The notes beneath the pieces were generated by a model, which was not told the origin of the DNA, ran no database searches, and was given only the letters and a program-made list of their open reading frames with translations. Of a stretch of 64,000 nucleotides of DNA, positions 100 to 50,878 are shown in pieces. The DNA lies in NCBI RefSeq assembly GCF_039555335.1, contig NC_092630.1, positions 31,084,769-31,148,768 of the forward strand. Direction: 5' to 3'. Both the position numbers and the translations under genes were made by a program. The DNA comes from Amphiura filiformis. Lineage: Eukaryota. The stretch's first letter is position 1, and each line of letters opens with the position of its first letter.

Positions 100-364
100 T
101 TAAATATTACCAAAACATATATATTTGTATTGAAGATACTCATCTATTCCGTACTTTCCTCCTTCCCTTCCCATCCCGGTTTCCTTGACTCCTCCAAATG
201 GGGTTGTTTCAGCAGAGATGATGCTCTCGTTGACACCGACCAATCCGACCTCTAATTTTTCCGCAACACGCCAGATCTGGGAGATGTTATTGGAGCAGAA
301 GTAGCCTGCTAGGCCTACATTGCAGGCATTGGCTATGGCAACGGCTTCCTCTTCAGTTTTAAAC
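100..364 (-). CDS. ALDH5A1: Succinate-semialdehyde dehydrogenase (ALDH5A1-like), exon 9 (last), ends ...[16 protein letters not shown] + TAA
   Basis: ORF 100..402(-) translates [22 protein letters not shown]...[22 protein letters not shown], collinear with the SSADH C-terminus. Acceptor ttatgtttttag|GTTTAAAACTG at 364/365. Phase matches exon 8 (ATA AG|G TTT). Confidence 0.85.
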
Positions 365-1902: not shown

Positions 1903-2072
1903 CTTATCAGTGGTGCCATTGGTCCAAATGTTTCTTCCCTACATGCTAACGCTTCTTTTGGAACATCGGCCAAGACAGTTGGTTCAAAAAATGAATGACC
2001 TAGTTCATGTCTCTTTCCTCCAATAAGCACTTTAGCTCCCAGAGCCACAGCATCTTTTACCTGGTTTTCAAC
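1903..2072 (-). CDS. ALDH5A1: ALDH5A1-like exon 8 (VENQVKDAVALGAKVLIGGKRHELGHSFFEPTVLADVPKEALACREETFGPMAPLI-)
   Basis: ORF 1899..2165(-). Acceptor attttcag|GTTGAAAAC, donor CTGATAAG|gtaatat. Matches human EKQVNDAV...HEETFGPLAPVIK. Confidence 0.85.
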
Positions 2073-2223
2073 CTGAAAATTATGACGGAAAAAAGTATAC
2101 GTATAAAGTTGGATGTTGATTGTGTTCACTTGCATGTTTTGGTGAGCCTTATGCACAATGTGCACTGCACATGGTTTTCTGATAATCAGCTAATAAATAT
2201 ATAAATAAGTATCATAGGAAATT

Positions 2224-2479
2224 GTGACACGATCTGGTCCATGGGTGCCAAAGGCGGCAAATTTGAAACTGAAATAACGGTAAAAATATGGAGTAAAAAA
2301 CAATAAAATACATAAGGAAATAGGCATCAAAAAACTTCATAACTTTAGAACCCAGTATGCTAGCTAGGCCTTTGGTGTTTTCAGTAAATGATAACCAATT
2401 GTATTTATAATGTAATAATTACAGTAACACAATTTTCAAAAATGCCTCCTTTGGCCCCCATGGACCAGATTGTGTCACA
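2224..2479. mobile_element. MITE family 1 (TIR gtgacacgatctggtccatggg...cccatggaccagattgtgtcac), 4-bp TSD AATT
   Basis: About 45-bp terminal inverted repeats. Copies also at 12865-13105, 21177-21430 and 45835-46671. Confidence 0.8.
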
Positions 2480-4234: not shown

Positions 4235-5350
4235 TAGTTTAAGGTTGGTCATAACCCTGGAATTATGGAAACTTTGCCTCGTGACTGCTCAATTGTGTAT
4301 AATATTTAGAACGGCAAAGACTTGCCGAATCCATCTTGGAATCCATTTTGGATCCAATATTTTCACACACTTGGATTCATCAAAGCATAATAATGTACAT
4401 TATTATTTTATTTATATCAGGCTTTTGAGCGATACAATAAAACTGTATATTGTACAATATTTGCAAAATACCCGGATGCAATACAATATTTGTTTAATAT
4501 TGTACGCGTTACCATGGTGACAACACCAACACGCGTCATGATACAACAGCACAACAATACATACACCGTAACGGCTCACAGGAGATTTCGTACTAAAACA
4601 AGTACAAACTTAATTCGTGGCTATTCTCGATGATGATAACCTTAGGAAATATAATCACCATCTAGGCCTACAAATAAACATATATATACAATTATTCTGA
4701 ATTTATCTTTAGAGAGTAAAGAGCAGAAAACAAGAAGGTCAAAAGGTAAGCTTACATTACAATACAAATTGGTTAAACCCGGTGGCTAGGTAAGCTTAAA
4801 TTTTCATTTTACCGCCTAGCAAAAGCCTGATATAAATAATAATAATAATATTGAATGGCTTATTTTCGTGTGATACAAGAATATATTGCACTCGATAGAA
4901 AAATATTGCACTCGTCTTCGACTCGTGCAATATTTTTATATCTCGTGCAATATATTCTCGTATCACACTCAAAGCCATTCAATATTATATAAATATTTAG
5001 TAAATGGCAAAGACTTTTCAAATCCATCTTGGGGTCAAATTTGGGCAAAAACGCTTAGTTTGGATAACATTAATTTTTTTTTTTAAATGTGTTTTGTGGC
5101 CCAATTGAAGCCATTCGTAGACCAGTATTCCCTATTTTATACTGTATAGGCCGAAATTATTTAAGTTATTGCTTAAAATATCAAGTGTACTGGTGTCCTT
5201 TTCTCCCTTTTTCTTCTCTCCTTTTCCTTTTTTTTTTTTTTTGGGGGAGGCAAAATGTGGGGAGACATTTGATATTGTGTGCCCCCACTTTGAAAAGTGG
5301 CCTTACTAACAAATGTCTTATGAAAGCCGAATTATTGAAATTTGTCTAGA

Positions 5351-6357: not shown

Positions 6358-6649
6358 GGTGTATGGTTCAAGGATTGGATAGCAGTTATCCATGCTTGAC
6401 CAATGCATGCATGGATAGCCCTTGTGAAATGGACATTGGATAGCTCTTATCCATCCTAGTGCTGACCAGCATGGATAATCGCTATCCAAGCCTACACCTT
6501 ACTGGTGTATGGCTCAAGGATTGGATAGCAGTTATCCATGTTTGACCAATGCATGCATGGATAGCCCTAGTGAAATGGACATTGGATAGCTCTTATCCAT
6601 CCTAGTGCTGACCAGCATGGATAATCGCTATCCAAGCCTTGAGCCATAC

Positions 6650-7400: not shown

Positions 7401-7694
7401 GGTGTATGGTTCAAGGATTGGATAGCAGTTATCCATGCTTGACCAATGCATGCATGGATAGCCCTTGTGAAATGGACATTGGATAGCTCTTATCCATCCT
7501 AGTGCTGACCAGCATGGATAATCGCTATCCAAGCCTACACCTTACTGGTGTATGGCTCAAGGATTGGATAGCAGTTATCCATGTTTGACCAATGCATGCA
7601 TGTATAGCCCTAGTGAAATGGACATTGGATAGCTCTTATCCATCCTAGTGCTGACCAGCATGGATAATCGCTATCCAAGCCTTGAGCCATACAC
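7401..7694. repeat. Second copy of the 147-bp hairpin MITE dimer
   Basis: Near-identical to 6358-6650. Confidence 0.75.
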
Positions 7695-10424: not shown

Positions 10425-10580
10425 CTTTTGAACAGCCTTGTCATTTATGAGTGGTCCCTGTGTTACGCCAGCCTCCATACCATTACCAACAACAAACTTC
10501 TCTACGGCTACAGCCATCTTCTTGCTGAACTCATCATAGATGCCATCTTGGACCAAGATTCTGTTGGCACACACGCAAGT
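10425..10580 (-). CDS. ALDH5A1: ALDH5A1-like exon 7 ([52 protein letters not shown])
   Basis: ORF 10368..10574(-). Contains the catalytic-Cys motif GQ|TCVCAN. Acceptor ccattag|ACTTGC, donor CAAAAG|gtaaga. Confidence 0.85.
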
Positions 10581-12082: not shown

Positions 12083-12226
12083 CTGTCCCATATTTCTGAA
12101 TTTTGCTAGCACTGCCCCTGCTACTGCTGTGTCCACATCGGCTGAATCAAACACAAGGAAGGGGGCATTACCACCAAGCTCCATAGACACACGCTTCACT
12201 GTACTTGCTGCTTGCTTGAGTAAAAT
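12083..12226 (-). CDS. ALDH5A1: ALDH5A1-like exon 6 ([48 protein letters not shown])
   Basis: ORF 11978..12397(-). ELGGN general-base motif. Acceptor ttgccag|ATTTTA, donor GGACAG|gtaggt. Confidence 0.85.
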
Positions 12227-12640: not shown

Positions 12641-12864
12641 GGTATTTGTTTGCTTGATAGTTGTTAGTATACACATAGTCACTACTTTTGGAAATTTGGT
12701 GCAAGCTCACATATGTGTGAGGAATCTTAATAGAGGCTCAGTGTAGAATTGAGGTTTAGACTCATCCTCCTTCAATGTAGGTCTAGTTCTGTGAAATGTA
12801 TACTTGTCATCCTAAGTTCTTTGACTCAATATAAAATAGTTCTTATGTATAGCTGGTTGTATAT

Positions 12865-13105
12865 GTGACACGATCTGGTCCATGGGGGCCAAAGGCAGCA
12901 AATTTGAAACTGAGATAAAGGTAAAAATATGGAGTAAAAAAACAAGAAAATACATAAGAAAATAGACATCAGAAAAATTCATAACTTTAGAACCAATTAT
13001 GCTAGACCTTTGGTGTTTTCAGGAAATGATAGCCTATTGTAATAATTACAGTAACTCAATTTTCAAAAATGCCTCCTTTGGCCCCCATGGACCAGATTGT
13101 GTCAC
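12865..13105. mobile_element. MITE family 1 copy, TSD ATAT
   Basis: Same TIRs as 2224-2479, flanked by atat/atat. Confidence 0.8.
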
Positions 13106-13576
13106 ATATACCCTCAACATACCCAAATGGATGTAATTATTAATAAATAAATCCAAGTAAGGTAAATCATCCACAGTAAAGTGCTCAACCAAGAAGGGAG
13201 CTGGAATATATTTAAAATGAACTTGGTGGTTTATTCAAGCATTGTTGACCTACACTGTCGGCATTGGCTGGCCTTCATGACACAATGTCGTACTTATCAA
13301 TATAAACTTTTGGCCGGCAGTAATAGAATGAAATTTTCCTTATTTATTCTTCAAGCCAAGGCTGTGAAAACCAAGAGTAAAATATCTATAAACGTTTAGA
13401 AATGTCATTAATACAATACCGTACACTATGAAATATCTTAACATTTGTACACCTTTATGCCACTTGGACATTCAACGAGTGCTCAGGTTTTACAACACCT
13501 GCTTTAATAATTTCAATTCAAATTGATTTAATTTGTCAAAATTTCTAAAAATTACTTTCGGGTTCTGTTCACCTAC

Positions 13577-13720
13577 CTTTCCTGTGGCGGTTGATCCAGT
13601 GAATGACATCTTCGCCACTAGAGGGCTCTCACAAATCACCTTACCAACAGCAGGTGTGTTTTCACGAGAAGACGTCACAATATTCATACATCCAGCAGGT
13701 AGTCCAGCCTCCTCTGCTAT
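13577..13720 (-). CDS. ALDH5A1: ALDH5A1-like exon 5 (IAEEAGLPAGCMNIVTSSRENTPAVGKVICESPLVAKMSFTGSTATGK)
   Basis: ORF 13490..13687(-) plus upstream in-frame codons. Acceptor tactttacag|ATAGCA, donor GGAAAG|gtaggtg. Matches human LASQAGIPSGVYNV...SFTGSTTTGK. Confidence 0.8.
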
Positions 13721-15475: not shown

Positions 15476-15592
15476 CATAGCGAGAGCTAGAGCTGAATAT
15501 GGAGTATCTTCTGCTGGTTTGATGACTGCAGTACATCCAGCAGCTAAGGCAGCACCAAGTTTTCTTGTAATCATGCCACTAGGAAAATTCCA
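15476..15592 (-). CDS. ALDH5A1: ALDH5A1-like exon 4 ([39 protein letters not shown])
   Basis: ORF 15386..15574(-). Acceptor tttttcag|TGGAAT, donor GCTATG|gtaagtg. Matches human [38 protein letters not shown]. Confidence 0.8.
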
Positions 15593-15739: not shown

Positions 15740-16097
15740 GAGGGTACTACAGACTACACCCCTGCCCAATGTTGTGCCTATTTTTGCATTTTTCTCAAAA
15801 ATTATAGAGCATTGAGGGCAAGTAAGATATGTATATTATAGGGGCAAGGACTTCAACTACTGCCCTAGACATTTTATTTCAGCACAGACAGCAGTTGTGG
15901 AGTAACAGTCAAAAATTAGGGAAAACCAATATTTGATAAATAAATCAATAATTACTTGCCTAGAGTTGCGGAATTTTCAGTGTAGTAGTTGTAGTCCTTG
16001 TCCCTATATATACATATCTTACTTGTCACCAATGCACTATAATTTTTGAGGAAAATGCAAAAATAGGCACAAAATTGGCCAGGGGTGTAGTACCCCC
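15740..16097. mobile_element. piggyBac-like MITE (family 2; TIR gagggtactacagactacacccct / aggggtgtagtaccccc) flanked by TTAA
   Basis: TTAA at 15736-15739 and 16098-16101. Copies at 47103-47465 (TTAA on the right flank) and a 5'-truncated copy at 27527-27810. Confidence 0.6.
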
Positions 16098-16216
16098 TTA
16101 AGAATATAAAATAGGCCACCTGTCAATATCTGACTATATTTGAACTATATTTTAACCACAGCCAGGTTTTGAAGAAAAGAATATTTTTTACCAATAACAA
16201 TACTTGTTTTACCTAC

Positions 16217-16381
16217 CGGTGTAATCATACCAGCTACTCCAACAGGTTGCCTGATTGTAATTCCTCTTTTACCAGTCATAGCAGGAGACACATCGCCGTA
16301 AGTCCTCTTTGCTTCTTCAGCAAACCACTCATAGAATGATGCAGCATACATGATCTCTCCCTTAGCTTCTGCTAATGGTTT
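16217..16381 (-). CDS. ALDH5A1: ALDH5A1-like exon 3 ([56 protein letters not shown]). This is the authentic, most 3' copy of the repeated exon fragment.
   Basis: ORF 16145..16390(-). Acceptor ttgattgcag|GGCAAACC, donor ACACCG|gtaggt. It is the only copy that continues past ...CCTGCTATGA into MTGKRG... and reaches a GT donor. Confidence 0.85.
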
Positions 16382-19300
16382 GCCCTGCAATCAAATAATC
16401 ATAATTGTAAGTGTCATTTTTACCATAGGAGAGGATACATCACAATAAGTTCTCTTTGCTTCTTCAGCAAACCACTCATAGAATGATGCGGCATACATGA
16501 TCTCTCCCTTAGCTTCTGCTAATGGTTTGCCCTGCAATCAAATAATCATAATTGTAAGTGTCATTTTTATCATAGGAGGGGATACATCACAATAAGTCCT
16601 CTTTGCTTCTTCAGCAAACCACTCATAGAATGATGCGGCATACATGATCTCTCCCTTAGCTTCTGCTAATGGTTTGCCCTGTAATCAAATAATCATAATT
16701 GTAAGTGTCATTTTTATCATAGGAGAGGATACATCACAATAAGTCCTCTTAGCTTCTTCCGCAAACCACTCATAGAATGATGCTGCATACATGATCTCTC
16801 CCTTAGCTTCTGCTAATGGTTTGCCCTGTAATCAAATAATCATAATTGTAAGTGTCATTTTTACCATAGGAGGGATACATCACAATAAGTTCTCTTTGCT
16901 TCTTCAGCAAACCACTCATAGAATGATGCGGCATACATGATCTCTCCCTTAGCTTCTGCTAATGGTTTGCCCTGTAATCAAATTATCATAATTGTAAGTG
17001 TCATTTTTACCATAGGAGGGATACATCACAATAAGTTCTCTTTGCTTCTTCAGCAAACCACTCATAGAATGATGCGGCATACATGATCTCTCCCTTAGCT
17101 TCTGCTAATGGTTTGCCCTGTAATCAAATTATCATAATTGTAAGTGTCATTTTTATCATAGGAGAGGATACATCACAATAAGTCCTCTTTGCTTCTTTGG
17201 CAAACCACTCATAGAATGATGCTGCATACATGATCTCTCCCTTAGCTTCTGCTAATGGTTTGCCCTGTAATCAAAGGATCATAATTGTAAATGTCATTTT
17301 TATCATAGGAGGGGATACATCGCCGTAAGTCCTCTTTGCTTCTTCAGCAAACCACTCATAGAATGATGCGGCATACATGATCTCTCCCTTAGCTTCTGCT
17401 AATGGTTTGCCCTGTAATCAAATTATCATAATTGTAAGTGTCATTTTTATCATAGGAGAGGATACATTACAATAAGTCCTCTTAGCTTCTTCCGCAAACC
17501 ACTCATAGAATGATGCGGCATACATGATCTCTCCCTTAGCTTCTGCTAATGGTTTGCCCTGTAATCAAATTATCATAATTGTAAGTGTCATTTTTATCAT
17601 AGCAGGAGACACATCGCCGTAAGTCCTCTTTGCTTCTTCAGCAAACCACTCATAGAATGATGCAGCATACATGATCTCTCCCTTAGCTTCTGCTAATGGT
17701 TTGCCCTGTAATCAAATTATCATAATTGTAAGTGTCATTTTTATCATAGGAGAGGATACATTACAATAAGTCCTCTTAGCTTCTTCCGCAAACCACTCAT
17801 AGAATGATGCGGCATACATGATCTCCCTTAGCTTCTGCTAATGGTTTGCCCTGTAATCAAATAATCATAATTGTAAGTGTCATTTTTATCATAGCAGGAG
17901 ACACATCGCCGTAAGTCCTCTTTGCTTCTTCAGCAAACCACTCATAGAATGATGCTGCATACATGATCTCTCCCTTAGCTTCTGCTAATGGTTTGCCCTG
18001 TAATCAAAGGATCATAATTGTAAATGTCATTTTTATCATAGGAGGGATACATCGCCGTAAGTCCTCTTTGCTTCTTCCGCAAACCACTCATAGAATGATG
18101 CAGCATACATGATCTCTCCCTTAGCTTCTGCTAATGGTTTGCCCTGTAATCAAAGGATCATAATTGTAAATGTCATTTTTATCATAGGAGGGGATACATC
18201 GCCGTAAGTCCTCTTTGCTTCTTCAGCAAACCACTCATAGAATGATGCAGCATACATGATCTCTCCCTTAGCTTCTGCTAATGGTTTGCCCTGTAATCAA
18301 ATTATCATAATTGTAAGTGTCATTTTTATCATAGGAGAGGATACATTACAATAAGTCCTCTTAGCTTCTTCCGCAAACCACTCATAGAATGATGCGGCAT
18401 ACATGATCTCTCCCTTAGCTTCTGCTAATGGTTTGCCCTGTAATCAAATAATCATAATTGTAAGTGTCATTTTTATCATAGCAGGAGACACATCGCCGTA
18501 AGTCCTCTTTGCTTCTTCAGCAAACCACTCATAGAATGATGCTGCATACATGATCTCTCCCTTAGCTTCTGCTAATGGTTTGCCCTGTAATCAAAGGATC
18601 ATAATTGTAAATGTCATTTTTATCATAGGAGGGGATACATCGCCGTAAGTCCTCTTTGCTTCTTCCGCAAACCACTCATAGAATGATGCAGCATACATGA
18701 TCTCTCCCTTAGCTTCTGCTAATGGTTTGCCCTGTAATCAAATTATCATAATTGTAAGTGTCATTTTTATCATAGCAGGAGACACATCGCCGTAAGTCCT
18801 CTTTGCTTCTTCAGCAAACCACTCATAGAATGATGCAGCATACATGATCTCTCCCTTAGCTTCTGCTAATGGTTTGCCCTGTAATCAAAGGATCATAATT
18901 GTAAATGTCATTTTTATCATAGGAGGGGATACATCACAATAAGTCCTCTTTGCTTCTTTGGCAAACCACTCATAGAATGATGCTGCATACATGATCTCTC
19001 CCTTAGCTTCTGCTAATGGTTTTCCCTGTAATCAAAGGATCATAATTGTAAGTGTCATTTTTATCATAGGAGGGGATACATCACAATAAGTCCTCTTTGC
19101 TTCTTTGGCAAACCACTCATAGAATGATGCTGCATACATGATCTCTTCCTTAGCTTCTGCTAATGGTTTGCCCTGTAATCAAATAATCATAATTGTAAGT
19201 GTCATTTTTATCATAGCAGGAGACACATCGCCGTAAGTCCTCTTTGCTTCTTCAGCAAACCACTCATAGAATGATGCAGCATACATGATCTCTCCCTTAG

Positions 19301-21510
19301 CTTCTGCTAATGGTTTGCCCTGTAATCAAATTATCATAATTGTAAGTGTCATTTTTATCATAGCAGGAGACACATCGCCGTAAGTCCTCTTTGCTTCTTC
19401 AGCAAACCACTCATAGAATGATGCGGCATACATGATCTCTCCCTTAGCTTCTGCTAATGGTTTGCCCTGTAATCAAATAAACATAATTGTAAGTGTCATT
19501 TTTATCATAGCAGGAGACACATCGCCGTAAGTCCTCTTTGCTTCTTCAGCAAACCACTCATAGAATGATGCGGCATACATGATCTCTCCCTTAGCTTCTG
19601 CTAATGGTTTGCCCTGTAATCAAATAATCATAATTGTAAGTGTCATTTTTATCATAGGACGGGATACATCGCAATAAGTCCTCTTTGCTTCTTCTGCAAA
19701 CCACTCTTAGAATGATGCGGCATACATGATCTCTCCCTTAGCTTCTGCTAATGGTTTGCCCTGTAATCAAATTATCATAATTGTAAGTGTCATTTTTATC
19801 ATAGCAGGAGACACATCGCCGTAAGTCCTCTTTGCTTCTTCAGCAAACCACTCATAGAATGATGCAGCATACATGATCTCTCCCTTAGCTTCTGCTAATG
19901 GTTTGTCCTGCAATCAAATAAACAATTGTAAGTGTCATTTTTATCATAGGAGGGATACATCGCAATAAGTCCTCTTTGCTTCTTCTGCAAACCACTCTTA
20001 GAATGATGCGGCATACATGATCTCTCCCTTAGCTTCTGCTAATGGTTTGCCCTGTAATCAAATTATCATAATTGTAAGTGTCATTTTATCATAGCAGGAG
20101 ACACATCGCCGTAAGTCCTCTTTGCTTCTTCAGCAAACCACTCATAGAATGATGCGGCATACATGATCTCTCCCTTAGCTTCTGCTAATGGTTTGTCCTG
20201 CAATCAAATAATCATAATTGTAAGTGTCAATTTTATCATAGGAGGGGATACATCACAATAAGTCCTCTTTGCTTCTTCAGCAAACCACTCATAGAATGAT
20301 GCGGCATACATGATCTCTCCCTTAGCTTCTGCTAATGGTTTGCCCTGTAATCAAATAAACATAATTGTAAGTGTCATTTTTATCATAGGAGGGGATACAT
20401 CACCGTAAGTCCTCTTTGCTTCTTCAGCAAACCACTCATAGAATGATGCGGCATACATGATCTCTCCCTTAGCTTCTGCTAATGGTTTGCCCTGTAATCA
20501 AATAAACATAATTGTAAGTGTCATTTTTATCATAGGAGGGGATACATCACCGTAAGTCCTCTTTGCTTCTTCAGCAAACCACTCATAGAATGATGCGGCA
20601 TACATGATCTCTCCCTTAGCTTCTGCTAATGGTTTGCCCTGTAATCAAATAATCATAATTGTAAGTGTCATTTTTATCATAGGAGGGGATACATCACCGT
20701 AAGTCCTCTTTGCTTCTTTAGCAAACCACTCAGAGAATGATGCGGCATACATGATCTCTCCCTTAGCTTCTGCTAATGGTTTGCCCTGTAATCAAATAAA
20801 CATAATTGTAAGTGTCATTTTTATCATAGGAGGGGATACATCACAATAAGTCCTCTTTGCTTCTTCCGCAAACCACTCATAGAATGATGCGGCATACATG
20901 ATCTCTCCCTTAGCTTCTGCTAATGGTTTGCCCTGTAATCAAATAAACATAATTGTAAGTGTCATTTTTATCATAGCAGGAGACACATCGCCGTAAGTCC
21001 TCTTTGCTTCTTTAGCAAACCACTCATAGAATGATGCAGCATACATGATCTCTTCCTTAGCTTCTGCTAATGGTTTGCCCTGTAATCAAATTATCATAAT
21101 TGTAAGTGTCATTTTTATCATAGGAGGGGATACATCACAATAAGTTTTCTTAGCTTCTTCAGCAAATCACTCATATGTGACACGATCTGGTCCATGGGGG
21201 CCAAAGGCGGCAAATTTGAAACTGAGATAAAGGTAAAAATATGGGGTTAAAAAACCAATAAAATACATAAGAAAATTGACATCAAAAAACTTCATAACTT
21301 TAGAACCAAGTATGATAGGCCTTTGGTGTTTTCAGTAAATGATAGCTTATTGTATGTATAATGTAATAATTACAGTAACTCAATTTTCAAAAATGCCTCC
21401 TTTGGCCCCCATGGACCAGATCGTGTCACATATAATGATACGCCATACATGATCTCTTCCTTAGCTTCTGCTAATGGTTTGCAAACCCTGTAATCAGATT
21501 ATCATAATTG
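16382..21510. repeat. 148-bp tandem satellite of about 33 units derived from the exon 3 / intron 2 junction of the ALDH5A1-like gene, interrupted by a MITE at 21177-21430
   Basis: The period is 148 (e.g. caatcaaataatcataattg at 16387 and 16535). Each unit is about 110 nt identical to the 5' part of exon 3 plus about 38 nt of upstream intron ending in the acceptor. There are two alternating sub-variants. Confidence 0.9.
21177..21430. mobile_element. MITE family 1 copy inserted into the 148-bp satellite, TSD ATAT
   Basis: Satellite unit sequence resumes at 21431-21510 after the element. Confidence 0.8.
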
Positions 21511-21759
21511 CTCAGTTCCTACACTTACTGATGCTGAATGCCCAGGTCTCTTAATACTTGGTTGCAAAGTTATGAACATTATATGTCAAGTTTCTCATGT
21601 TTTTATTGTTTTTCTCCTCACTTCTTGCCTATATCTCGGTTTCATTATTGCCAACTTTAGCCTATATCTCGGTTTCATTATTGCCAACTTTAGCCTGATT
21701 GGATCAGATCTGGTCACATGTAGTTAGGATGACAATATATAATAGTATTTCATATTTAC

Positions 21760-21843
21760 CTGTTCAGCAGTCATTAGTTTTGCAAGATCATCCTGGTTTT
21801 GCACCATTAATGCAAACATCTTTTTCAGTATTTCACATCTTTC
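21760..21843 (-). CDS. ALDH5A1: ALDH5A1-like exon 2 (ERCEILKKMFALMVQNQDDLAKLMTAEQ)
   Basis: ORF 21724..21975(-). Acceptor ttttcaatttcag|GAAAGATG, donor GAACAG|gtaaatatg. Matches human [28 protein letters not shown]. Confidence 0.8.
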
Positions 21844-22780: not shown

Positions 22781-23041
22781 CTTTGCCGATGTGTCCCTCC
22801 AAGTATAAAATGCATCATAGGCTTTCTGTATAGCGTCCTGTGTTTCTGCTACACCCAAATCTGCTACTCGTCCCAACTCTTCACCGGTAGCAGGGTTTTT
22901 AACTGTGAAGGTGTTGCCGTCCTTTGCACTCACCCATGCCCCATTGATGTATGCATGCTCCTTGAGGTACTGGGTGTAGTGTCGCACTGGAAGCCTTGCT
23001 GGTGTACGTTTAAGCACTTGTAGTGTATGTATGGCAAACAT
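22781..23041 (-). CDS. ALDH5A1: ALDH5A1-like exon 1 (MFAIHTLQVLKRTPARLPVRHYTQ... putative mitochondrial presequence, then ...GAWVSAKDGNTFTVKNPATGEELGRVADLGVAETQDAIQKAYDAFYTWRDTSAK)
   Basis: ORF 22760..23041(-). ATG at 23041-23039. Donor GGCAAAG|gtaattttac. The N-terminus is Arg-rich and lacks acidic residues, typical of a transit peptide. Confidence 0.8.
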
Positions 23042-32489: not shown

Positions 32490-33690
32490 AGACTTAGCTG
32501 TGGTCTAAGACCACGAACACAGCCGTGGTGTGACCCCTTAATGACCTTTGACTCCAAAATTTCAGAACACTCCATAGACATCGGCTAATCTCAATGCACG
32601 TTTGCACGTGGCATCACTCTGCTATGTTATTTGTGCCAGAAGAGGCATTTAGAAGGAATTTCGTTTTTAGACCGGAAGTGACCCTAAATGACCTTTGATC
32701 CCAAATAAAAAATACCAGAGATACACTGGATAACCACAATTCATGTGTGAACATACCGTTACTGTCGTAATTATTTCGTTTTATACCGGAAGTGACCCTT
32801 TAATGACCTTTGACCCCAAATCTGTGTACACCCCGTAGACACTGGGTAATGACAATGCATGTGTGCAAGTGGCGTCACTGTCCTACGTAATATGTGGGAG
32901 AAGATGCATTTTAAAGGTATTTCGTTTTATACCGGAAGTGACGCCTTAATGACCTATCACCCAAAATTTAAAAAACCACATATACACTGGGTAACCACAA
33001 TTAATGTGTGAACATACCGTTACTGTCCTATGTTTGGTTTGTGTAATAAAAATTTTTGAAGGTATTTCGTTTTATACCGGAAGTGACCCCTTAATGACCT
33101 TTGACCCCAAATAAAAAATACCACATATACACTAGGTAACCACAATTCATGTGTGAACATACCATTACTGTACTATGTTTTGTTTGGCTAATAAAATTTT
33201 TTGAAGGTATTTCGTTTTATACCGGAAGTGACCCCTAAATGACCTTTGACCCCAAATTTGTGTACACCCCATAGACACTAGGTAATGACAATGCATGTGT
33301 GCAAGTGGCGTCACTGTCCTACGTAATTTGTGGGAGAAGATGCATTTTAAAGGTTTTTCGTTTTATACCGGAAGTGACCCCTTAATGACCTTTGACCCAA
33401 AATAAAAAAATACCACATATAAACTGGATAACCGCAATTCATGTGTGAACATACCGTTACTGTCCTTTGTTTTGTTTAGCTAATAAAATTTTTTGAATGT
33501 ATTTCGTTTTATACCGGAAGTGACCCTTTAGTGACCTTTGACCCCAAATCTGTGTACACCACATAGACACTGGGTAGTAACAATGCATGTGTGCTAGTGG
33601 CGTCGCTATCCTACGTAAGTTGTGGGAGAAGATGCATTTTTAGTTGAAATCATGTTTTTGACCCCTATGACCCCTGCGTGACCTTTGACC
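32490..33690. repeat. About 146-bp tandem repeat of roughly 8 units with two alternating sub-types (accggaagtgaccc...aatgacctttgacccc)
   Basis: cggaagtgacc recurs at 32674, 32779, 32931, 33077, 33222, 33369 and 33515. Confidence 0.85.
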
Positions 33691-36010: not shown

Positions 36011-36221
36011 GATTGAAATGGTCTTCCATTCTACATTTGCAGTTTTAGGGCACCACTATACAAATTTATGCAAAGGTTCTTTGTGCACTGTTTTTAGATT
36101 TCAAATAAACTTAACACCTTCTTTATTATCATTTTCAGAAATATATATATTTGGAGCTTGCCACCAGTCAACCACATTGTATCAGAATTTGAACATCAGA
36201 AACAACATCTATCTCCTCACG

Positions 36222-37832
36222 ATGGCAGAAGGACCTTGGCTTCGCAACTGGGGCCACATGACACAGCAATTTGAAGGTAACAAAATTGAAATGATATCTG
36301 GCACCACCAAGTTAATCGACAAAGAAATGTGGCAAAGAGCTTATTTCTCTTTAGTACAAGTGTACGGCAAACAAATGTTCATCAAACTCTCTCACAGTTG
36401 TGCAGGAGATGAAGACAAGTCCATCTGGTTGCGGTATCATTTCCAGATGCACGGAAGACTTAAAATTGGGCTGAAGCTAAGTAAAGAACAACAACCTCGA
36501 TTGGTTTTCCATTTCCAAGATAGAAAATATCTTGCATTTTTCGGTGGCTCTCTCAAAATTGTAGCAGGACCTTGTGAAGACACCAAGACAGATATTCTAA
36601 GTGAGACTTTTGATAGAGAACAGGCCGCTGAAGCTGTGAGGCAAGGTGATCATGTTTGTAACATTCTATTGGACCAAACACACTTCTCTGGTGTCGGCAA
36701 TATCATCATGAATGAAGTGCTGTATAACTGCAAAATCCATCCTCAAGAAATTGGGGAGAATCTCAGTCGAACAGAGGCAGAGAACTTGGTCAATGAAGTT
36801 GTTAAATTCAGCAACGAGTGGCTGGATTGGGAGCTCTCTGATCACTCATGCGAAGAAAATTTGAGTGATCAAATGAAAGTATACTGGAAATTTACATGCC
36901 CTCTTGGTCACAAAACTAAACGGGGCTGGTTTAAAGAGAACGAGCTGAAATGGGTAATGGTGTGGTGTCCTCGATGCCAGCAAGAGAAAAGTATGCCAAT
37001 TCAAAAGCTGGGATGTGGAAAAGTAGTTGATAGCAAAAGTAGCAATGGTGAGGATGCAAGTAGTGCAGAATACAGTGGTGGTGAGGTTCAATGTAGCGAT
37101 AGTGATGGAACAGGAAGTTATGATTGGAATTGCACGTTAGATGAGTTGCCATCTATGAGTAATGAGGATACAATCAATACCAGTGATGAGCATGGTAATG
37201 ATGTGATGATGTATGATAATATGGTGACATCGGATAGTGGAATGGCATCGGATGGTGATTTGGAAGTTGTAAGTGTCATTGACAGAACATGTGTTATAAT
37301 GAGTAACTATGAAGAAAAGAAACCAAAAGTTGACAACTCTTCCAAATCGTGTAATAAATCGGTAAAAGTTCTTGTGGAACAAAGCGTTCTTGAGTTGCAT
37401 CCCAAGTTAAACATGGCAGCTGTTGCACTTGCGAAGAAACTATCTGCACATGAAATTCAGAGGCGTACTTGCAAGTATAAAAGATGTAACACAAACTTAA
37501 AGACAAGGTCATTTAATAGCAAATGGCACAGAATCAGTCATTCCAGGTATAATAAACACACAACCTGTCACAGCAGGCCTGGAGTAAATGCGAAAATAAG
37601 TCAGAGGAAACAAGAAGATCAAATTGCGCGAAAGTTGTATAAGGCTCAAGACAGGGACATTGCAATCAAGAAGAAAGCAAGTAGTAGAAAGACCAAGGTG
37701 CCTACATGTAGAATGCCCTTGAAGAAGTGGAGGGTTTCGGATTGTGTAAAGCTATCAGCTCAAGACAAGAACACTACAATGAAGATGGTAAAAACTCCAA
37801 GTGGTACTTTTGTTGTTACAGCACCCAAGTAA
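36222..37832 (+). CDS. NEIL2: Nei-like DNA glycosylase 2 (NEIL2-type; Fpg/Nei N-terminal domain, H2TH, CHCC zinc finger), single exon, with a ~280-aa low-complexity C-terminal extension
   Basis: ORF 36018..37832. From the Met at 36222: MAEGPWLRNWGHMTQQFEGNKI (human NEIL2 is MPEGPLVRKFHHLVSPFVGQQV). PRLVFHFQDRKYLAFFGG, LLDQTHFSGVGNIIMNEVLYNCKIHP (H2TH) and CPLGH...WCPRCQ (CHCC) are all collinear with NEIL2, with no frameshifts or stops. TATATATATTT lies about 75 nt upstream of the ATG. Confidence 0.85.
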   Translation: MAEGPWLRNWGHMTQQFEGNKIEMISGTTKLIDKEMWQRAYFSLVQVYGKQMFIKLSHSCAGDEDKSIWLRYHFQMHGRLKIGLKLSKEQQPRLVFHFQDRKYLAFFGGSLKIVAGPCEDTKTDILSETFDREQAAEAVRQGDHVCNILLDQTHFSGVGNIIMNEVLYNCKIHPQEIGENLSRTEAENLVNEVVKFSNEWLDWELSDHSCEENLSDQMKVYWKFTCPLGHKTKRGWFKENELKWVMVWCPRCQQEKSMPIQKLGCGKVVDSKSSNGEDASSAEYSGGEVQCSDSDGTGSYDWNCTLDELPSMSNEDTINTSDEHGNDVMMYDNMVTSDSGMASDGDLEVVSVIDRTCVIMSNYEEKKPKVDNSSKSCNKSVKVLVEQSVLELHPKLNMAAVALAKKLSAHEIQRRTCKYKRCNTNLKTRSFNSKWHRISHSRYNKHTTCHSRPGVNAKISQRKQEDQIARKLYKAQDRDIAIKKKASSRKTKVPTCRMPLKKWRVSDCVKLSAQDKNTTMKMVKTPSGTFVVTAPK

Positions 37833-45609: not shown

Positions 45610-45834
45610 ATGTACTGAAAAGGTTGTTCTTTTAAAACTGATCAACTTTTATGAATTTAGAAATCTTGAGAATTTATTTTGTATTCATTTTGAAGAAAAA
45701 ATGTTTCTTCCTACTTTTTCAGAATGTGTTTGTCATAACTTTATAAAGCTTTCAAACAAGTAAAGCCATAATGTATGATCTGAATTATTATAAGATGAAA
45801 TTGGTGAATTTTTACTCAATTTTTTGCTTTTTTT

Positions 45835-46671
45835 GACATGATCTGGTCCATGGATGTCAAAGGCGGCAAATTTGAAATTGAGATAAAGGCAAAATAAAAA
45901 CATTAAAATACTGTTTACATAATAAAATAGACATCACAAAACTTCATAAGTTTAACCAAGAATGCTACATGTAGACCTTATGATGTTTTCAATATGATAG
46001 CGCACAGTGTCATCGCCCCGATATCTTCATGGCAGAAATCGCCATGGTAGATTGAATCCTCCGCCACGCATGGCCATTATACATATCGACCTGTTTAATA
46101 GTTTCGCATAAATAGGCTGAAGGACATCTGACTAAGGCTACTGAAAATAGCCCCGATTACCTTGGTGACTGACCTCGCTGTGTGTCAGTCAAGCATGGTA
46201 TGCCATAGGTCATATTCTTTTAGACAACCTTCACGATTGGCCTATACACTGCGCTATATAATTCGGCACATATTAATCAGAATTATTGCGGAATTATTGT
46301 CAGTTTTTGACTCAAGACGCAAGCTACTGTCTCAAAGCGCAAGTTAACGACTATCATATCTGTTCAAAATATATATTCATGTGTAAGGAACCACATCTGG
46401 TTTCTTTACGAAATCATTTACGGGAGATATTCATCATTTTCTACATGTACACCGCTATCCAAAGATTTTCTTCACATATCAAACTCATGCATAGCAAATG
46501 CACGTGTATCGATCCCGGGTATTCATTTTAGTATCTCTGCTGTACCAAGTAATTATTAGCCAGGCGATGTCGGTGTGTAGCGTAATATTTGTATTTTTAA
46601 GTATAAATAATTATTGTAACTAAATTTTCAAAAATGCCTCCTTTGGCCTCCATGGACCAGATCGTGTCGCA
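45835..46671. mobile_element. MITE family 1 copy with about 580 bp of unrelated internal sequence
   Basis: Left TIR tgacatgatctggtccatggatgtcaaaggcggcaaatttgaaa, right TIR ttttcaaaaatgcctcctttggcctccatggaccagatcgtgtcgc. Confidence 0.6.
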
Positions 46672-47968: not shown

Positions 47969-49366
47969 ATGAATGCTGACGATGCTGATGCTTATGATGC
48001 TGCTGATGCTGCTGATGATGATGCTGTTGACGATGCTGATGCTGCTGATGATGATGCTACTGATGATGCTGTTGATGCTGCTGCTGATAATGATGTTGAT
48101 ACTGATGATGCTACTGATGATGCTGCTGATGATGCAGATGCTGCTGATGATGCTGATGATGTTGATGCTGATGATGTTCATGATGCGACTGATGATAATG
48201 CTGATGATGCTGCTGCCAATGATGCTGATGATGATGTTGCTACTGATGATGCTGATACTGATGATGATGCTGATGATGATGATGTTGCTGCTGATAATGA
48301 TGTTGATACTGATGATGCTGCTGACAATGCAGGTGCTGATGGTGCTGCTGATGATGATGCTGATGATGTTGATCATGTTGATGATGCGACTGATGATGAT
48401 GCTGCTGCAGATGATGATGCTGCTGCAGATGATGATGCTGCTGATGATGCTGATACTGCTCATAATGCTGCTGCTGACGATGCTGCTGATGTTGATGCTG
48501 CTGCTGATGATGATGCTGATACTGATGACGCTGATGATGATGCTGCTGCTGACGATGTAGATGCTGATGATGATGCTAATGCTGCTGCTGATGTTGATGC
48601 TGCTGCTGATAATGATGTTGATACTGATGATGCTGCTGATGATGCTGCTGCTGACGATGCAGATGCTGATGATGATGCTGATGATGTTGATGATGCGACT
48701 GATGATGTTGCTGCTGCTGATGATGCTGCTACTGATGATGCTGATACTGCTGCTGATGATGCTGCTGATGATGATGCTGCTGCTGATGTTGCTGCTGATA
48801 ATGATGTTGATACTGATGATGCTGCTGCTGACAATGCAGGTGCTGATGGTGCTGCTGATGATGATGCTGATGATGTTGATGATCATGTTGATGGTGCGAC
48901 TGATGATGCTGCTGCTGCTGATGATGCTGATACTGCTCATAATGCTGCTGCTGACGATGCTGCTGATGATGTTGATGCTGTTGATGATGCTGATACTGCT
49001 GCTGCTGCTGATGATGATAATGTTGCTGCTGCTGCTGATGCTGCTGATATTAATGATGCTGCTGCTGATGTTGCTGCTGATGATGCAGATGTTGATGATG
49101 CTGATGATGATGTTGACGATGCTGCTGATGATGCTGATGCTGCTGCTGATGATGCTGTTGCTGATGATGCTGATACTGATGATGCTGCTGCTGACGGTGC
49201 TGCTGCTGATGTTGATGCTACTGCTGATGATGCTGATACTGATGCTGCTGCTGCTGACGATGTAGATGCTGATGATGATGCTGCTGCTGACGATGCGGAT
49301 GCTGCTGCTGATGATGATACTGATGATGTTGATGATGATGTTGATGATGCTGCTGATGATGACTGA
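47969..49366 (+). CDS. Intact 465-codon ORF encoding an extremely acidic poly(Asp/Ala) protein (MNADDADAYDAADAADDDAVDD...), built from GATGCT-type cryptic repeats. Coding status is uncertain.
   Basis: Uninterrupted ORF with ATG AAT GCT at 47969. Codons are almost exclusively GAT/GCT/GAC/GTT/ACT. There is an internal 510-bp duplication (48285-48400 matches 48795-48910). No signal peptide. Confidence 0.3.
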   Translation: MNADDADAYDAADAADDDAVDDADAADDDATDDAVDAAADNDVDTDDATDDAADDADAADDADDVDADDVHDATDDNADDAAANDADDDVATDDADTDDDADDDDVAADNDVDTDDAADNAGADGAADDDADDVDHVDDATDDDAAADDDAAADDDAADDADTAHNAAADDAADVDAAADDDADTDDADDDAAADDVDADDDANAAADVDAAADNDVDTDDAADDAAADDADADDDADDVDDATDDVAAADDAATDDADTAADDAADDDAAADVAADNDVDTDDAAADNAGADGAADDDADDVDDHVDGATDDAAAADDADTAHNAAADDAADDVDAVDDADTAAAADDDNVAAAADAADINDAAADVAADDADVDDADDDVDDAADDADAAADDAVADDADTDDAAADGAAADVDATADDADTDAAAADDVDADDDAAADDADAAADDDTDDVDDDVDDAADDD

Positions 49367-49673
49367 TGATGACAATGATGCCTCGGATGATGACTTGCAT
49401 GATGATGACATGTATGATCAGTAGCTGTATCATCACCATCATCAGCATCAGCAGGATCATCATCAGCAGCATCACCAGCATCAGTATCATCAGTAGCAGT
49501 ATCAGCATCATCAACAGCATCATCATCAGCATCATAATCAGCATCAGCAGGATCATCATCAGCAGCATCACCAGCATCAGTATCATCAGTAGCAGTATCA
49601 GCATCATCAACAGCATCATCATCAGCATCATAATCAGCATCAGCAGCATCATCAGCATCACCATCATCTGCAT

Positions 49674-49714
<41 letters not shown>

Positions 49715-49746
49715 GCATCATCATTAGCATCATCAGCATCATTATC

Positions 49747-50099
49747 TTAATTGGCATCATCAGCATTATCAGCATCAGCAGCATCATCATCAGTAGGCCT
49801 AACATCATCAGCATCACCATCTGCATCAGAATCATCATCAGCAGCATCAGCATCATCATAATCAACATCATAATCAGCAGCAACATCATCATTATCACCA
49901 TCATCTGCATCAGAATCATCACCAGCATCATCATCATCATCCTCATTAGCATCATCAGCATCATCATCATAATCGGCATCATAAGCATTATCATCATCAT
50001 CAGCATCATCATCAGCAACATTATCAGCATTATCATCGGCATCAGCATCATCATCATCATTAGCATAATCAGCATCAGCACCATCAACATCATCATCAA

Positions 50100-50130
<31 letters not shown>

Positions 50131-50878
50131 ATCTACATCGTCAGCAGCAGCATTATCGTCAGCGTCATCAGTATCAGCATCATCATCAGCAGCATCAACA
50201 TCAGCAGCAGCATCGTCAGCATCAGTATCAGCATCATCAACAACAGCAGCAGCATCATCAGCATCGTCAGCAGCATCATCAGCAGTATCAGAATCATTTT
50301 CAGCAGCAGCATTAACATCATCAGCAGCAGCATTATTAGCATTAGCATTGTCAGCAACATCATCAGCATCATTATCATCAGCAGCATCATCAGTAGCAGC
50401 ATCATCAGCAGCATCATCATCATCAACAGCATTATCATCCAGCAGTATCATTATCAGCAGCATCATAAGCATCAGCATCGTCAGCATCATCATCAACAGC
50501 ATCACCATCATCAGCATCATCATCAGCAGCATCATCAGCATCTGCTCCATCAGCAGCAGCATAATCAGCAGCATCATCAGTATCAACATCATTATCAGCA
50601 GCAGCATTAACATCATCAGCAGCAGCATCAGCATCATCAGTATCAGCATCATCAGCAGCAGCATCATCATCATCAGTCGCATCATCATCAACATCATCAT
50701 CAGCATCATCATCAGCATCTGCATCGTCAGCAGCATCATTAGTATCAACATCATTATCAGCAGCAGCATCAACATCATCAGCAGCAGCATCATCATCAGC
50801 AGCATCATCATCAGTAGCATCATCAGCAGCATCAGCATCGTCAACAGCATCATAATCAGCAGCATCATAAGCATTCAT
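49747..50878 (-). pseudogene. Inverted, diverged paralogue of the D/A-rich ORF (MNAYDAADYDAVDDADAADD...). The D/A frame is broken by a stop and frame shifts.
   Basis: ORF 50435..50989(-) holds the D/A frame from ATG 50878 and stops at 50435. The D/A frame resumes in a different frame inside ORF 49747..50874(-). It starts with the same ATGAATGCT as the plus-strand copy. Confidence 0.25.

Follow-up and report, generated by a model that had tools for sequence, protein, structure and literature searches.

Intron 2 of an SSADH gene in Amphiura filiformis carries 33 tandem decoy copies of its own exon 3 acceptor

Several human genes contain minisatellites that span an exon-intron boundary, and in these it is the donor that is repeated and the first monomer that crosses the boundary (PMC1557585). 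Examples are F7 IVS7, with 5-9 copies of a 37 bp unit, CBS IVS13, with 15-20 repeats, LMNB2, with 10-15 copies of 100 bp, PDGF intron 4, with 16-18 copies of 81 bp, and IFI6 (6-16), where two out of 25 pseudo-sites are used (PMC1557585). Here we describe an array whose closest known kin are these donor minisatellites, and which can be seen as their mirror image on the acceptor side. It lies in a 64,000-nt stretch of DNA from the brittle star Amphiura filiformis (Ophiuroidea; RefSeq assembly GCF_039555335.1, contig NC_092630.1, positions 31,084,769 to 31,148,768; hereafter the window), in intron 2 of the gene for succinate-semialdehyde dehydrogenase (SSADH), where 33 truncated copies of the intron 2/exon 3 boundary precede the authentic one.

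Like the F7, CBS, IFI6, LMNB2 and PDGF arrays, the SSADH array is intronic and head-to-tail, its terminal monomer contains the authentic junction, and pseudo-sites fill the intron; as with the F7-type arrays, it resides in a functional gene and constitutes a natural cis-competition experiment. The pseudo-sites are silent in most of the human cases (PMC1557585), and here silence is predicted from the splice signals and from the RefSeq protein, which equals the model that uses the last copy. The polarity is opposite to that of the well-studied F7-type donor arrays: there, the donor is repeated and the first, 5'-most copy is authentic, whereas here it is the acceptor that is repeated and the last copy that is authentic, so that a first-site rule with 5'-to-3' scanning cannot explain the choice. 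The content of the units also differs, since an F7 unit carries 4 nt of exon while the SSADH unit carries 110 nt, including any exonic enhancers, and the SSADH array, with its 33 copies, has an exon part that appears to undergo concerted evolution with the real exon in more than one species. No example of an acceptor-side boundary-spanning array was found in the literature that we searched, although this search was limited and is no proof of absence.

The host gene is encoded on the minus strand and comprises nine exons with GT-AG introns throughout, as modelled by tblastn with an SSADH query and inspection of the splice sites; introns 1-7 are all in phase 0. When exon 2 is joined to the last copy of the array, the product is an intact protein of 502 aa, which scores 700.9 bits against NCBIfam TIGR01780 (cut-off 646.35), matches human mitochondrial SSADH (2w8n) with E=1.3e-201 over aligned residues 26-501, and is identical over its full length to RefSeq XP_072026376.1, 'succinate-semialdehyde dehydrogenase, mitochondrial-like [Amphiura filiformis]'. 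The NCBI gene model likewise joins exon 2 to the last copy. These matches bear out the identification of the gene in an earlier note on this stretch of DNA, and the numbering used there (intron 2, exon 3) is right for the coding exons; the structure that it described stands as well, with the amendment that gene and array are read on the minus strand.

Intron 2 (21759..16385, minus strand) is 5375 nt long, and the array occupies ~91% of it. Tandem Repeats Finder (TRF) reports one array at 16276..21175 with a period of 147, 33.4 copies, 94% matches and a score of 8442, and the consensus alignment contains zero indels. On the minus strand, an anchor composed of the acceptor and the start of exon 3, AAACCATTAGCAGAAGC, occurs 34 times; leaving aside the first interval, which is enlarged to 404 nt by a 255-bp insertion, the anchors are spaced by exactly 147 nt in 26 of 32 cases and by 144-146 nt in the remaining six. 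The period is thus 147 and not the 148 bp proposed earlier, and since 147 = 3x49, the accompanying statement that the unit length is not a multiple of 3 was wrong, although an in-frame TGA is nevertheless present in each unit. Aligned unit by unit, the array consists of 33 decoys (u0-u32) and the authentic exon (u33), in agreement with the ~33 tandem units counted before. Each unit is made up of 110 nt of exon 3 (GGCAAACCATTAGCAG...CCTATGA) followed by 37 nt of intron ending in ttgattacag, much as the earlier note had read it (the end of the intron with ttgattacag, plus ~110 nt of exon 3), and with an exon part that is up to 100% identical the units do include exon 3 sequence.

The array adjoins the authentic exon 3 directly and in register with it. 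Its terminal monomer holds the authentic junction, i.e. the acceptor and nt 1-110 of exon 3, which brings the total to 34 AG acceptors. Only this last copy (beginning at 16384) runs on, as ...CTATGACTGGTAAAAGAGG...ATTACACCG/gtaggt (the slash marking the splice junction), and the exon 3 continuation found here alone reads ...CTGGTAAAAGAGG...ACACCG/gtaggt; no other copy is joined to the last 58 nt of exon 3 and the exon 3 donor, as had been claimed. A boundary segment of ~147-151 bp, with ~37 nt of intron including branch site and AG and 110 nt of exon, is therefore now present in 34 in-register copies. Since the breakpoint falls within the exon, all copies further upstream hold just a truncated start of the exon and have no donor.

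The array was built in place from the intron 2/exon 3 boundary, as the 37-nt intron part of the unit shows clear homology to the unique intron sequence just upstream of u0 (score 15, reached by none of 5000 shuffles). No unit copies were found outside the array in the 64-kb window, and an Rfam scan of the whole window gave zero matches. With one locus only (a 4.9-kb array in a 64-kb window), the label of satellite DNA in the genomic sense is not possible. In having an identifiable single-copy progenitor, this tandem family resembles the CapA satellite, which derives from intronic single-copy sequence (bioRxiv 10.1101/213868); CapA is genome-wide, whereas the SSADH array is, as far as seen, single and local, and is attached to and includes its progenitor. 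Introns can also be created or extended by internal gene duplications (Gao and Lynch 2009 and Hellsten et al. 2011, reviewed in PMC3443670), which offer another comparison. They share with the SSADH array that they are tandem and within a gene, and that a duplicated splice signal is absorbed with the mRNA unchanged; those are single duplications, mostly of exonic AGGT segments that create a new intron, however, while here an existing intron has become ~14-fold longer through the serial amplification of the boundary at its 3' end. Two other ideas on the junction were considered. That the 37-nt unit tail is exon 3 sequence from positions 111-148 which has diverged is not supported (p=0.10, and p=0.70 for the relative described below), and the tail matches the flanking intron instead; a GTAA microhomology junction with an ancestral strong donor cannot be shown.

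The decoys are non-coding, given their stop codons and frameshifts: u8 and u10 contain TAA stops, u8, u21, u23, u28 and u29 carry frameshifting indels, every unit has the in-frame TGA (ttTGAttacag), and exon 2 joined to any decoy without further processing would run into a stop after 46 codons. A search of assemblies with a decoy-specific peptide recovered no decoy open reading frames (ORFs), just the exon 3 ORFs of relatives. The array is thus not a tandem exon duplication, the copies being truncated (at +110 of 168) and degenerate.

The splice signals suggest how the correct acceptor might be found. All 34 acceptors are essentially alike, with a branch-like CTTAC motif at -24, no AG in between, and a pyrimidine fraction of 0.50-0.60; for the authentic exon 3 acceptor (16385-16430) this fraction is 0.55, the lowest among the eight acceptors of the gene (0.65-0.80 in the others). 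On an approximate scale, the real SSADH donors score 5.4-10.9 bits and that of exon 3 scores 9.36, compared to 5.66 bits for the best GT in the decoys (ACG/GTGATG, in three units only) and 4.77 bits for CAT/GTATGC, which occurs in the real exon too. Three further donor-like sites at unit ends (Table 1) would each define a pseudo-exon that stops just 39 nt before the next AG. RNA folding of one unit with its flanks gave z=-0.49, i.e. no unusual structure and hence none able to mask the decoys. Decoy exons that promote intron retention are known from SF3B1 intron 4 and OGT (PMC6097662, PMC7373989), and like these, the SSADH units offer unproductive intronic splice sites that could engage the flanking authentic ones. 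Each of those is a lone cryptic exon that has a 3' as well as a 5' site, however, whereas the SSADH units are tandem and acceptor-only: their acceptors are intact and their best internal GTs reach 3.65-5.66 bits, and in the absence of a competent donor they are not decoy exons in that sense.

We suggest that the boundary was amplified into an array that is tolerated and evolves in concert, and that exon definition keeps its decoy acceptors from being used, and we put the probability of this explanation at about 0.65. The boundary segment would have been tandemly duplicated and then amplified by unequal crossing-over. The spliceosome would pass over the 33 decoys because the exon 3 acceptor is weak and relies on exon definition, which would require a good donor ~170 nt downstream, and the last copy alone has one. 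Given decoys without a good donor and the weakest pyrimidine tract of the gene at exon 3, exon definition is the best-supported mechanism by which the last copy would be selected. The array itself would be an essentially neutral passenger, kept exon-like by unequal exchange and gene conversion between units and between units and the real exon, with the latter, under purifying selection, serving as the anchor for homogenisation. Homogenisation against a selected exon could then explain why the array looks young despite a homologous decoy in a deeply diverged relative.

Correct splicing of this gene for a core metabolic enzyme means skipping 33 near-perfect false exon starts. The locus thereby represents an extreme natural cis-competition for the choice of a 3' splice site, in which 34 acceptors share the same branch region, AG and first 110 exon nt and differ only in the sequence further downstream. 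If transcripts use the last copy only, then it is the downstream donor, through exon definition, that dictates the acceptor, against both proximity and the order of transcription. An essential coding exon moreover appears to evolve in concert with 33 non-coding copies, which places stops and frameshifts one gene conversion away from the real exon, a standing mutational hazard; the same concerted evolution may explain how a tandem array can stay 'young' over long times.

The variation among the units supports such exchange. Units u1-u32 differ pairwise by ~5.6% on average, in the exon-derived and intron-derived parts alike. Within the exon part, nucleotide diversity (pi) is graded, from 0.011 in nt 1-40 over 0.046 in nt 41-80 to 0.131 in nt 81-110, and the high diversity at its end is due to two old haplotypes. 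The haplotype of the real exon (..CGGCGATGTGTCTCCTGCT..) is found in ten units at dispersed places in the array, and in three of them (u13, u16 and u24) 109/109 nt match exon 3; the decoy haplotype reads ..TTGTGATGTATCCCCTCCT.. instead. Further classes are defined by variants of the intron part (CC, T) and by a TT.TA subtype, which makes at least four variant classes overall. Identical units can be non-adjacent (u16=u24, u18=u22, u19=u25), with a few identities at lags 4, 6 and 8, and in the four-gamete test all four gametes are present at 23/120 informative site pairs. This pattern of variation points to unequal exchange and gene conversion and not to a clean higher-order amplification. The earlier note had proposed two alternating sub-variants, one identical to the exon and one diverged, and the exon-identical class does exist; a strict alternation of two does not, given the four or more classes, and the higher-order amplification deduced from it is weakly supported, as the mean number of differences between units falls only from 7.9-8.3 at odd lags to 6.8 at lags 2 and 4.

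The 5'-most unit, u0, provides an indication of age. Its exon part differs from the real exon at 17 positions, it has a 4-nt insertion after its AG, and it is split by the single miniature inverted-repeat transposable element (MITE) that had been noticed before as interrupting the array. Once the MITE and one TA are removed, a normal unit is restored. The terminal inverted repeats of the element have arms of 46-49 nt that are 93-94% complementary, and since it is short, non-coding, multicopy and flanked by a TA duplication, it can be classed among the TA-target (Tc1/mariner-like, Stowaway-type) elements; the window holds three full copies and one interrupted copy. Divergence between the u0 MITE and its sister copies amounts to 8.5-10%, which means that the first unit is not a recent one. 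With a rough calibration for A. filiformis of 18-22% divergence in ~100 Myr (PMC11310086), the MITE insertion, and hence the first duplication, would probably date back on the order of tens of millions of years.

Relatives were identified in metagenome and genome assemblies by a protein search with the decoy peptide and by a profile search, as exon 3 ORFs on eukaryotic contigs; among JGI metagenome contigs, the exon 3 peptide matched bacterial SSADH genes only, at <=74% identity. The closest relative is on a contig of 560 bp (ENA ERZ7462372), in which exon 3 is 93% identical in protein and 81.5% in DNA. At its start, this contig lies within an additional copy of its own exon 3, with 93% identity between positions 1-72 and exon positions 41-112; next come an intron-like piece of ~42 nt (with CTGACTAAC) and then the real exon, cag/GGTAAACC. 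As the first 56 nt are identical to its own exon 3, the contig begins within repeated sequence, as would be the case if the assembler broke off at the repeat. Such arrays can mislead gene predictors and short-read assemblers alike, as this contig end inside a decoy, in sequence repeated from the exon, illustrates. Between the window and the relative, exon 3 shows a dS of ~1.4 and a dN of 0.05, although with ~40 synonymous sites only, the former is near saturation.

A comparison of the two species indicates that their decoys could go back to one event. In both, the match of the decoys to the exon ends at position 108-110 (out of 168), with intron pieces of similar length, 37-38 nt in the window and 42-43 nt in the relative. 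The decoys of both species have a C where both real exons have a G (cctCctatg and cctCttatg vs cctGctatg), and over the 55 nt that can be compared, decoy and exon agree within each species at 7/7 species-diagnostic sites. In eight other animal orthologues with the same exon boundaries, no decoy was seen in the 780-10,039 nt upstream that were examined; the only two loci with acceptor-side decoys are each other's closest relatives among the ten surveyed. Based on this, we favour a single old duplication, after which the decoys probably evolved in concert with the selected exon as their anchor, over two independent duplications with coincident breakpoints.

In a control among the SSADH orthologues, from another animal and on the JGI metagenome contig Ga0558716_35102, a unit of 93 nt across the exon 3/intron 3 donor boundary is present twice in tandem (5119-5211 and 5212-5304, with one mismatch). 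This duplication is of the donor-side, F7 type, at the other end of exon 3, and is unrelated to the acceptor-side decoys; duplications across an exon-intron boundary are evidently no rarity in such genomes.

That the decoys of the window and of the relative arose independently is the alternative to be taken most seriously, although we consider it doubtful. If boundary duplications are frequent, as the recurrence of such an event on the donor side of the same exon suggests, the Amphiura array could be young instead of ancient and homogenised, and the likeness of decoy and exon within each species would also be expected from recent duplication. The intron parts of the two species, in addition, are not demonstrably homologous: with ACAG fixed, the similarity is not significant (p=0.24), as is expected at this divergence, and a common origin therefore rests on the breakpoint position and one shared substitution. 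Against this stand the agreement of the exon breakpoints within ~2 nt together with intron pieces of similar length, the C shared by both decoy lineages, and the fact that the only two acceptor-side loci are mutual closest relatives; nor do the 17 differences of u0 and the divergence of its MITE speak for a very young array in Amphiura.

Several observations weigh against our explanation of a tolerated, homogenised array whose decoys are passed over, in addition to the dissimilar intron parts just mentioned. The relative shows one partial decoy only, on a contig of 560 bp. The steep gradient of diversity along the exon part is not obviously predicted by pure neutral exchange, and a neutral array lasting over a dS of ~1.4 would itself be surprising. 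The silence of the decoys is predicted from splice signals and from the RefSeq model, which may itself be based partly on protein homology, and the donor scores were derived with an approximate matrix that was not trained on A. filiformis. Finally, experiments with duplicated acceptors (early globin work) are summarised in PMC1557585 as favouring the 'proximal' copy; if this is the upstream acceptor, then the first decoy is predicted to be used, and not the last. It is this conflict between a choice by exon definition and the 5'-to-3' proximity behaviour reported there that makes the locus interesting.

The retention of the decoys might also reflect selection for a regulatory device, in which 33 decoys engage the exon 2 donor or U2AF/U2 non-productively and so tune SSADH output, either by slowing or blocking intron 2 removal or through nonsense-mediated decay (NMD), as a multi-copy, acceptor-only form of the intron retention caused by decoy exons. 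A nearly identical decoy junction in a relative at dS ~1.4, with none in eight other orthologues, would fit such a role, as would the intact AG and branch-like CTTAC of every unit, the far greater uniformity of the acceptor and first 40 exon nt compared to the remainder, and the effect of decoy splice sites in human genes (PMC6097662, PMC7373989). Known decoy exons need both splice sites, however, and the units here lack a good donor; homogenisation accounts just as well for the uniform 5' part; across the two species, these 40 nt show ~10 differing sites, so that the sequence itself is not conserved; and a single decoy is visible in the relative. We thus find a regulatory role unlikely. A more specific form, an 'acceptor sponge' in which the battery of branch sites, AGs and exonic enhancers has been selected in ophiuroids since before the dS ~1.4 split, is a little less likely again; if true, it would set the rate or frequency of intron 2 removal, by a detained intron or an NMD switch, and would be a kind of splicing regulator undescribed before.

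An assembly artefact, concerning either the array or its copy number, is very improbable. The A. filiformis assembly was made with flye from Nanopore R9.4.1 reads at ~100x and polished, for a genome with a heterozygosity of 3.2% (PMC11310086), and leftover indel errors might explain the six units of 144-146 nt. However, the array has just 4.9 kb, much less than a typical nanopore read at this coverage, the differences between units form structured, shared haplotypes and not random noise, one unit carries a MITE, and an independent short-read assembly of the relative has the decoy-intron junction in a contig that ends within the repeat. Least probable of all is that an exon fragment was captured by a dispersed satellite or a mobile element which then inserted into the intron. 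The 147-bp monomer length (typical of satellites), the other 146-bp tandem blocks and the abundant MITEs of the window might be cited for it. Against it, the non-exon part of the unit shows homology to the unique intron sequence next to the array, the array is in register and continuous with the real exon, no other copy of the unit is present in 64 kb, and the other 146-bp repeats have unrelated consensus sequences.

Table 1. Positions of the SSADH exons, the parts of intron 2, and other features within the window
Feature	Position	Strand	Remarks
SSADH coding exon 1	22781..23041	-	ATG at 23041; donor AAG/gtaatt
SSADH exon 2	21760..21843	-	84 nt; phase 0/0; donor CAG/gtaaat, 8.2 bits
Unique 5' part of intron 2	21488..21759	-	sequence read, TRF
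33-bp x2.1 repeat in unique 5' intron part	21627..21696
Old MITE-like fragment in unique 5' intron part	21554..21662
Ancestral acceptor region	21525..21488	-	~38 nt; source of the unit's intron part; similarity test
Decoy unit u0	21080..21487	-	oldest and most diverged, MITE-split; unit alignment
MITE, inside u0 only	21176..21430	-	255 bp; TA target-site duplication, terminal inverted repeats
Decoy units u1-u32	16385..21079	-	TRF, anchors, unit alignment
Weak donor-like ATG/GTAAAA, end of u28	17005..17013	-	3.65 bits; 107-nt pseudo-exon
Weak donor-like ATG/GTAAAA, end of u29	16859..16867	-	3.65 bits; 107-nt pseudo-exon
Weak donor-like ATG/GTAAAA, end of u32	16418..16426	-	3.65 bits; 108-nt in-frame pseudo-exon, 39 nt from authentic AG
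Authentic exon 3 acceptor region	16421..16385	-	last 37 nt of the u1-u32 span
Last array repeat	16384..16275	-	first 110 nt of exon 3
Authentic exon 3	16217..16384	-	168 nt; phase 0/0; donor CCG/gtaggt, 9.36 bits
Inverted-repeat element, intron 3	15753-16091
SSADH exon 4	15476..15592	-	gene model
SSADH exon 5	13720..13577	-	gene model
Full MITE copy, SSADH intron 5	13106..12864		90.2% identical
SSADH exon 6	12226..12083	-	gene model
SSADH exon 7	10580..10425	-	gene model
~146-bp-period blocks, SSADH intron 7	6358-6639 and 7401-7682
Full MITE copy, SSADH intron 8	2479..2223		91.5% identical
SSADH exon 8	2072..1903	-	gene model
SSADH exon 9	364..100	-	gene model
146/292-bp array	32530-33640		5.6 copies
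604-aa open ORF	36018-37832	+
Interrupted, longer MITE copy	46671..45834		outside the SSADH gene
Inverted low-complexity arms	47981-49371 and 49429-50874

Other repeats are present in and around the gene. The two blocks with a period of ~146 bp in intron 7 are near-identical, with 1.9 copies each and 1 kb between them, and the consensus of these and of the longer 146/292-bp array is unrelated to the exon 3 unit. Just downstream of exon 3, intron 3 contains a separate inverted-repeat element with 84-nt arms that are 92% complementary and 171 nt apart. Outside the SSADH gene, the 604-aa ORF encodes an Fpg/Nei H2TH domain (PF06831, 55.3 bits) and looks like a NEIL-like DNA glycosylase gene, with no exact match in the protein collection searched. 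Further along, the inverted low-complexity arms, each of ~1.4 kb and (GAT/GCT)n-like in sequence, give rise to long spurious ORFs on both strands.

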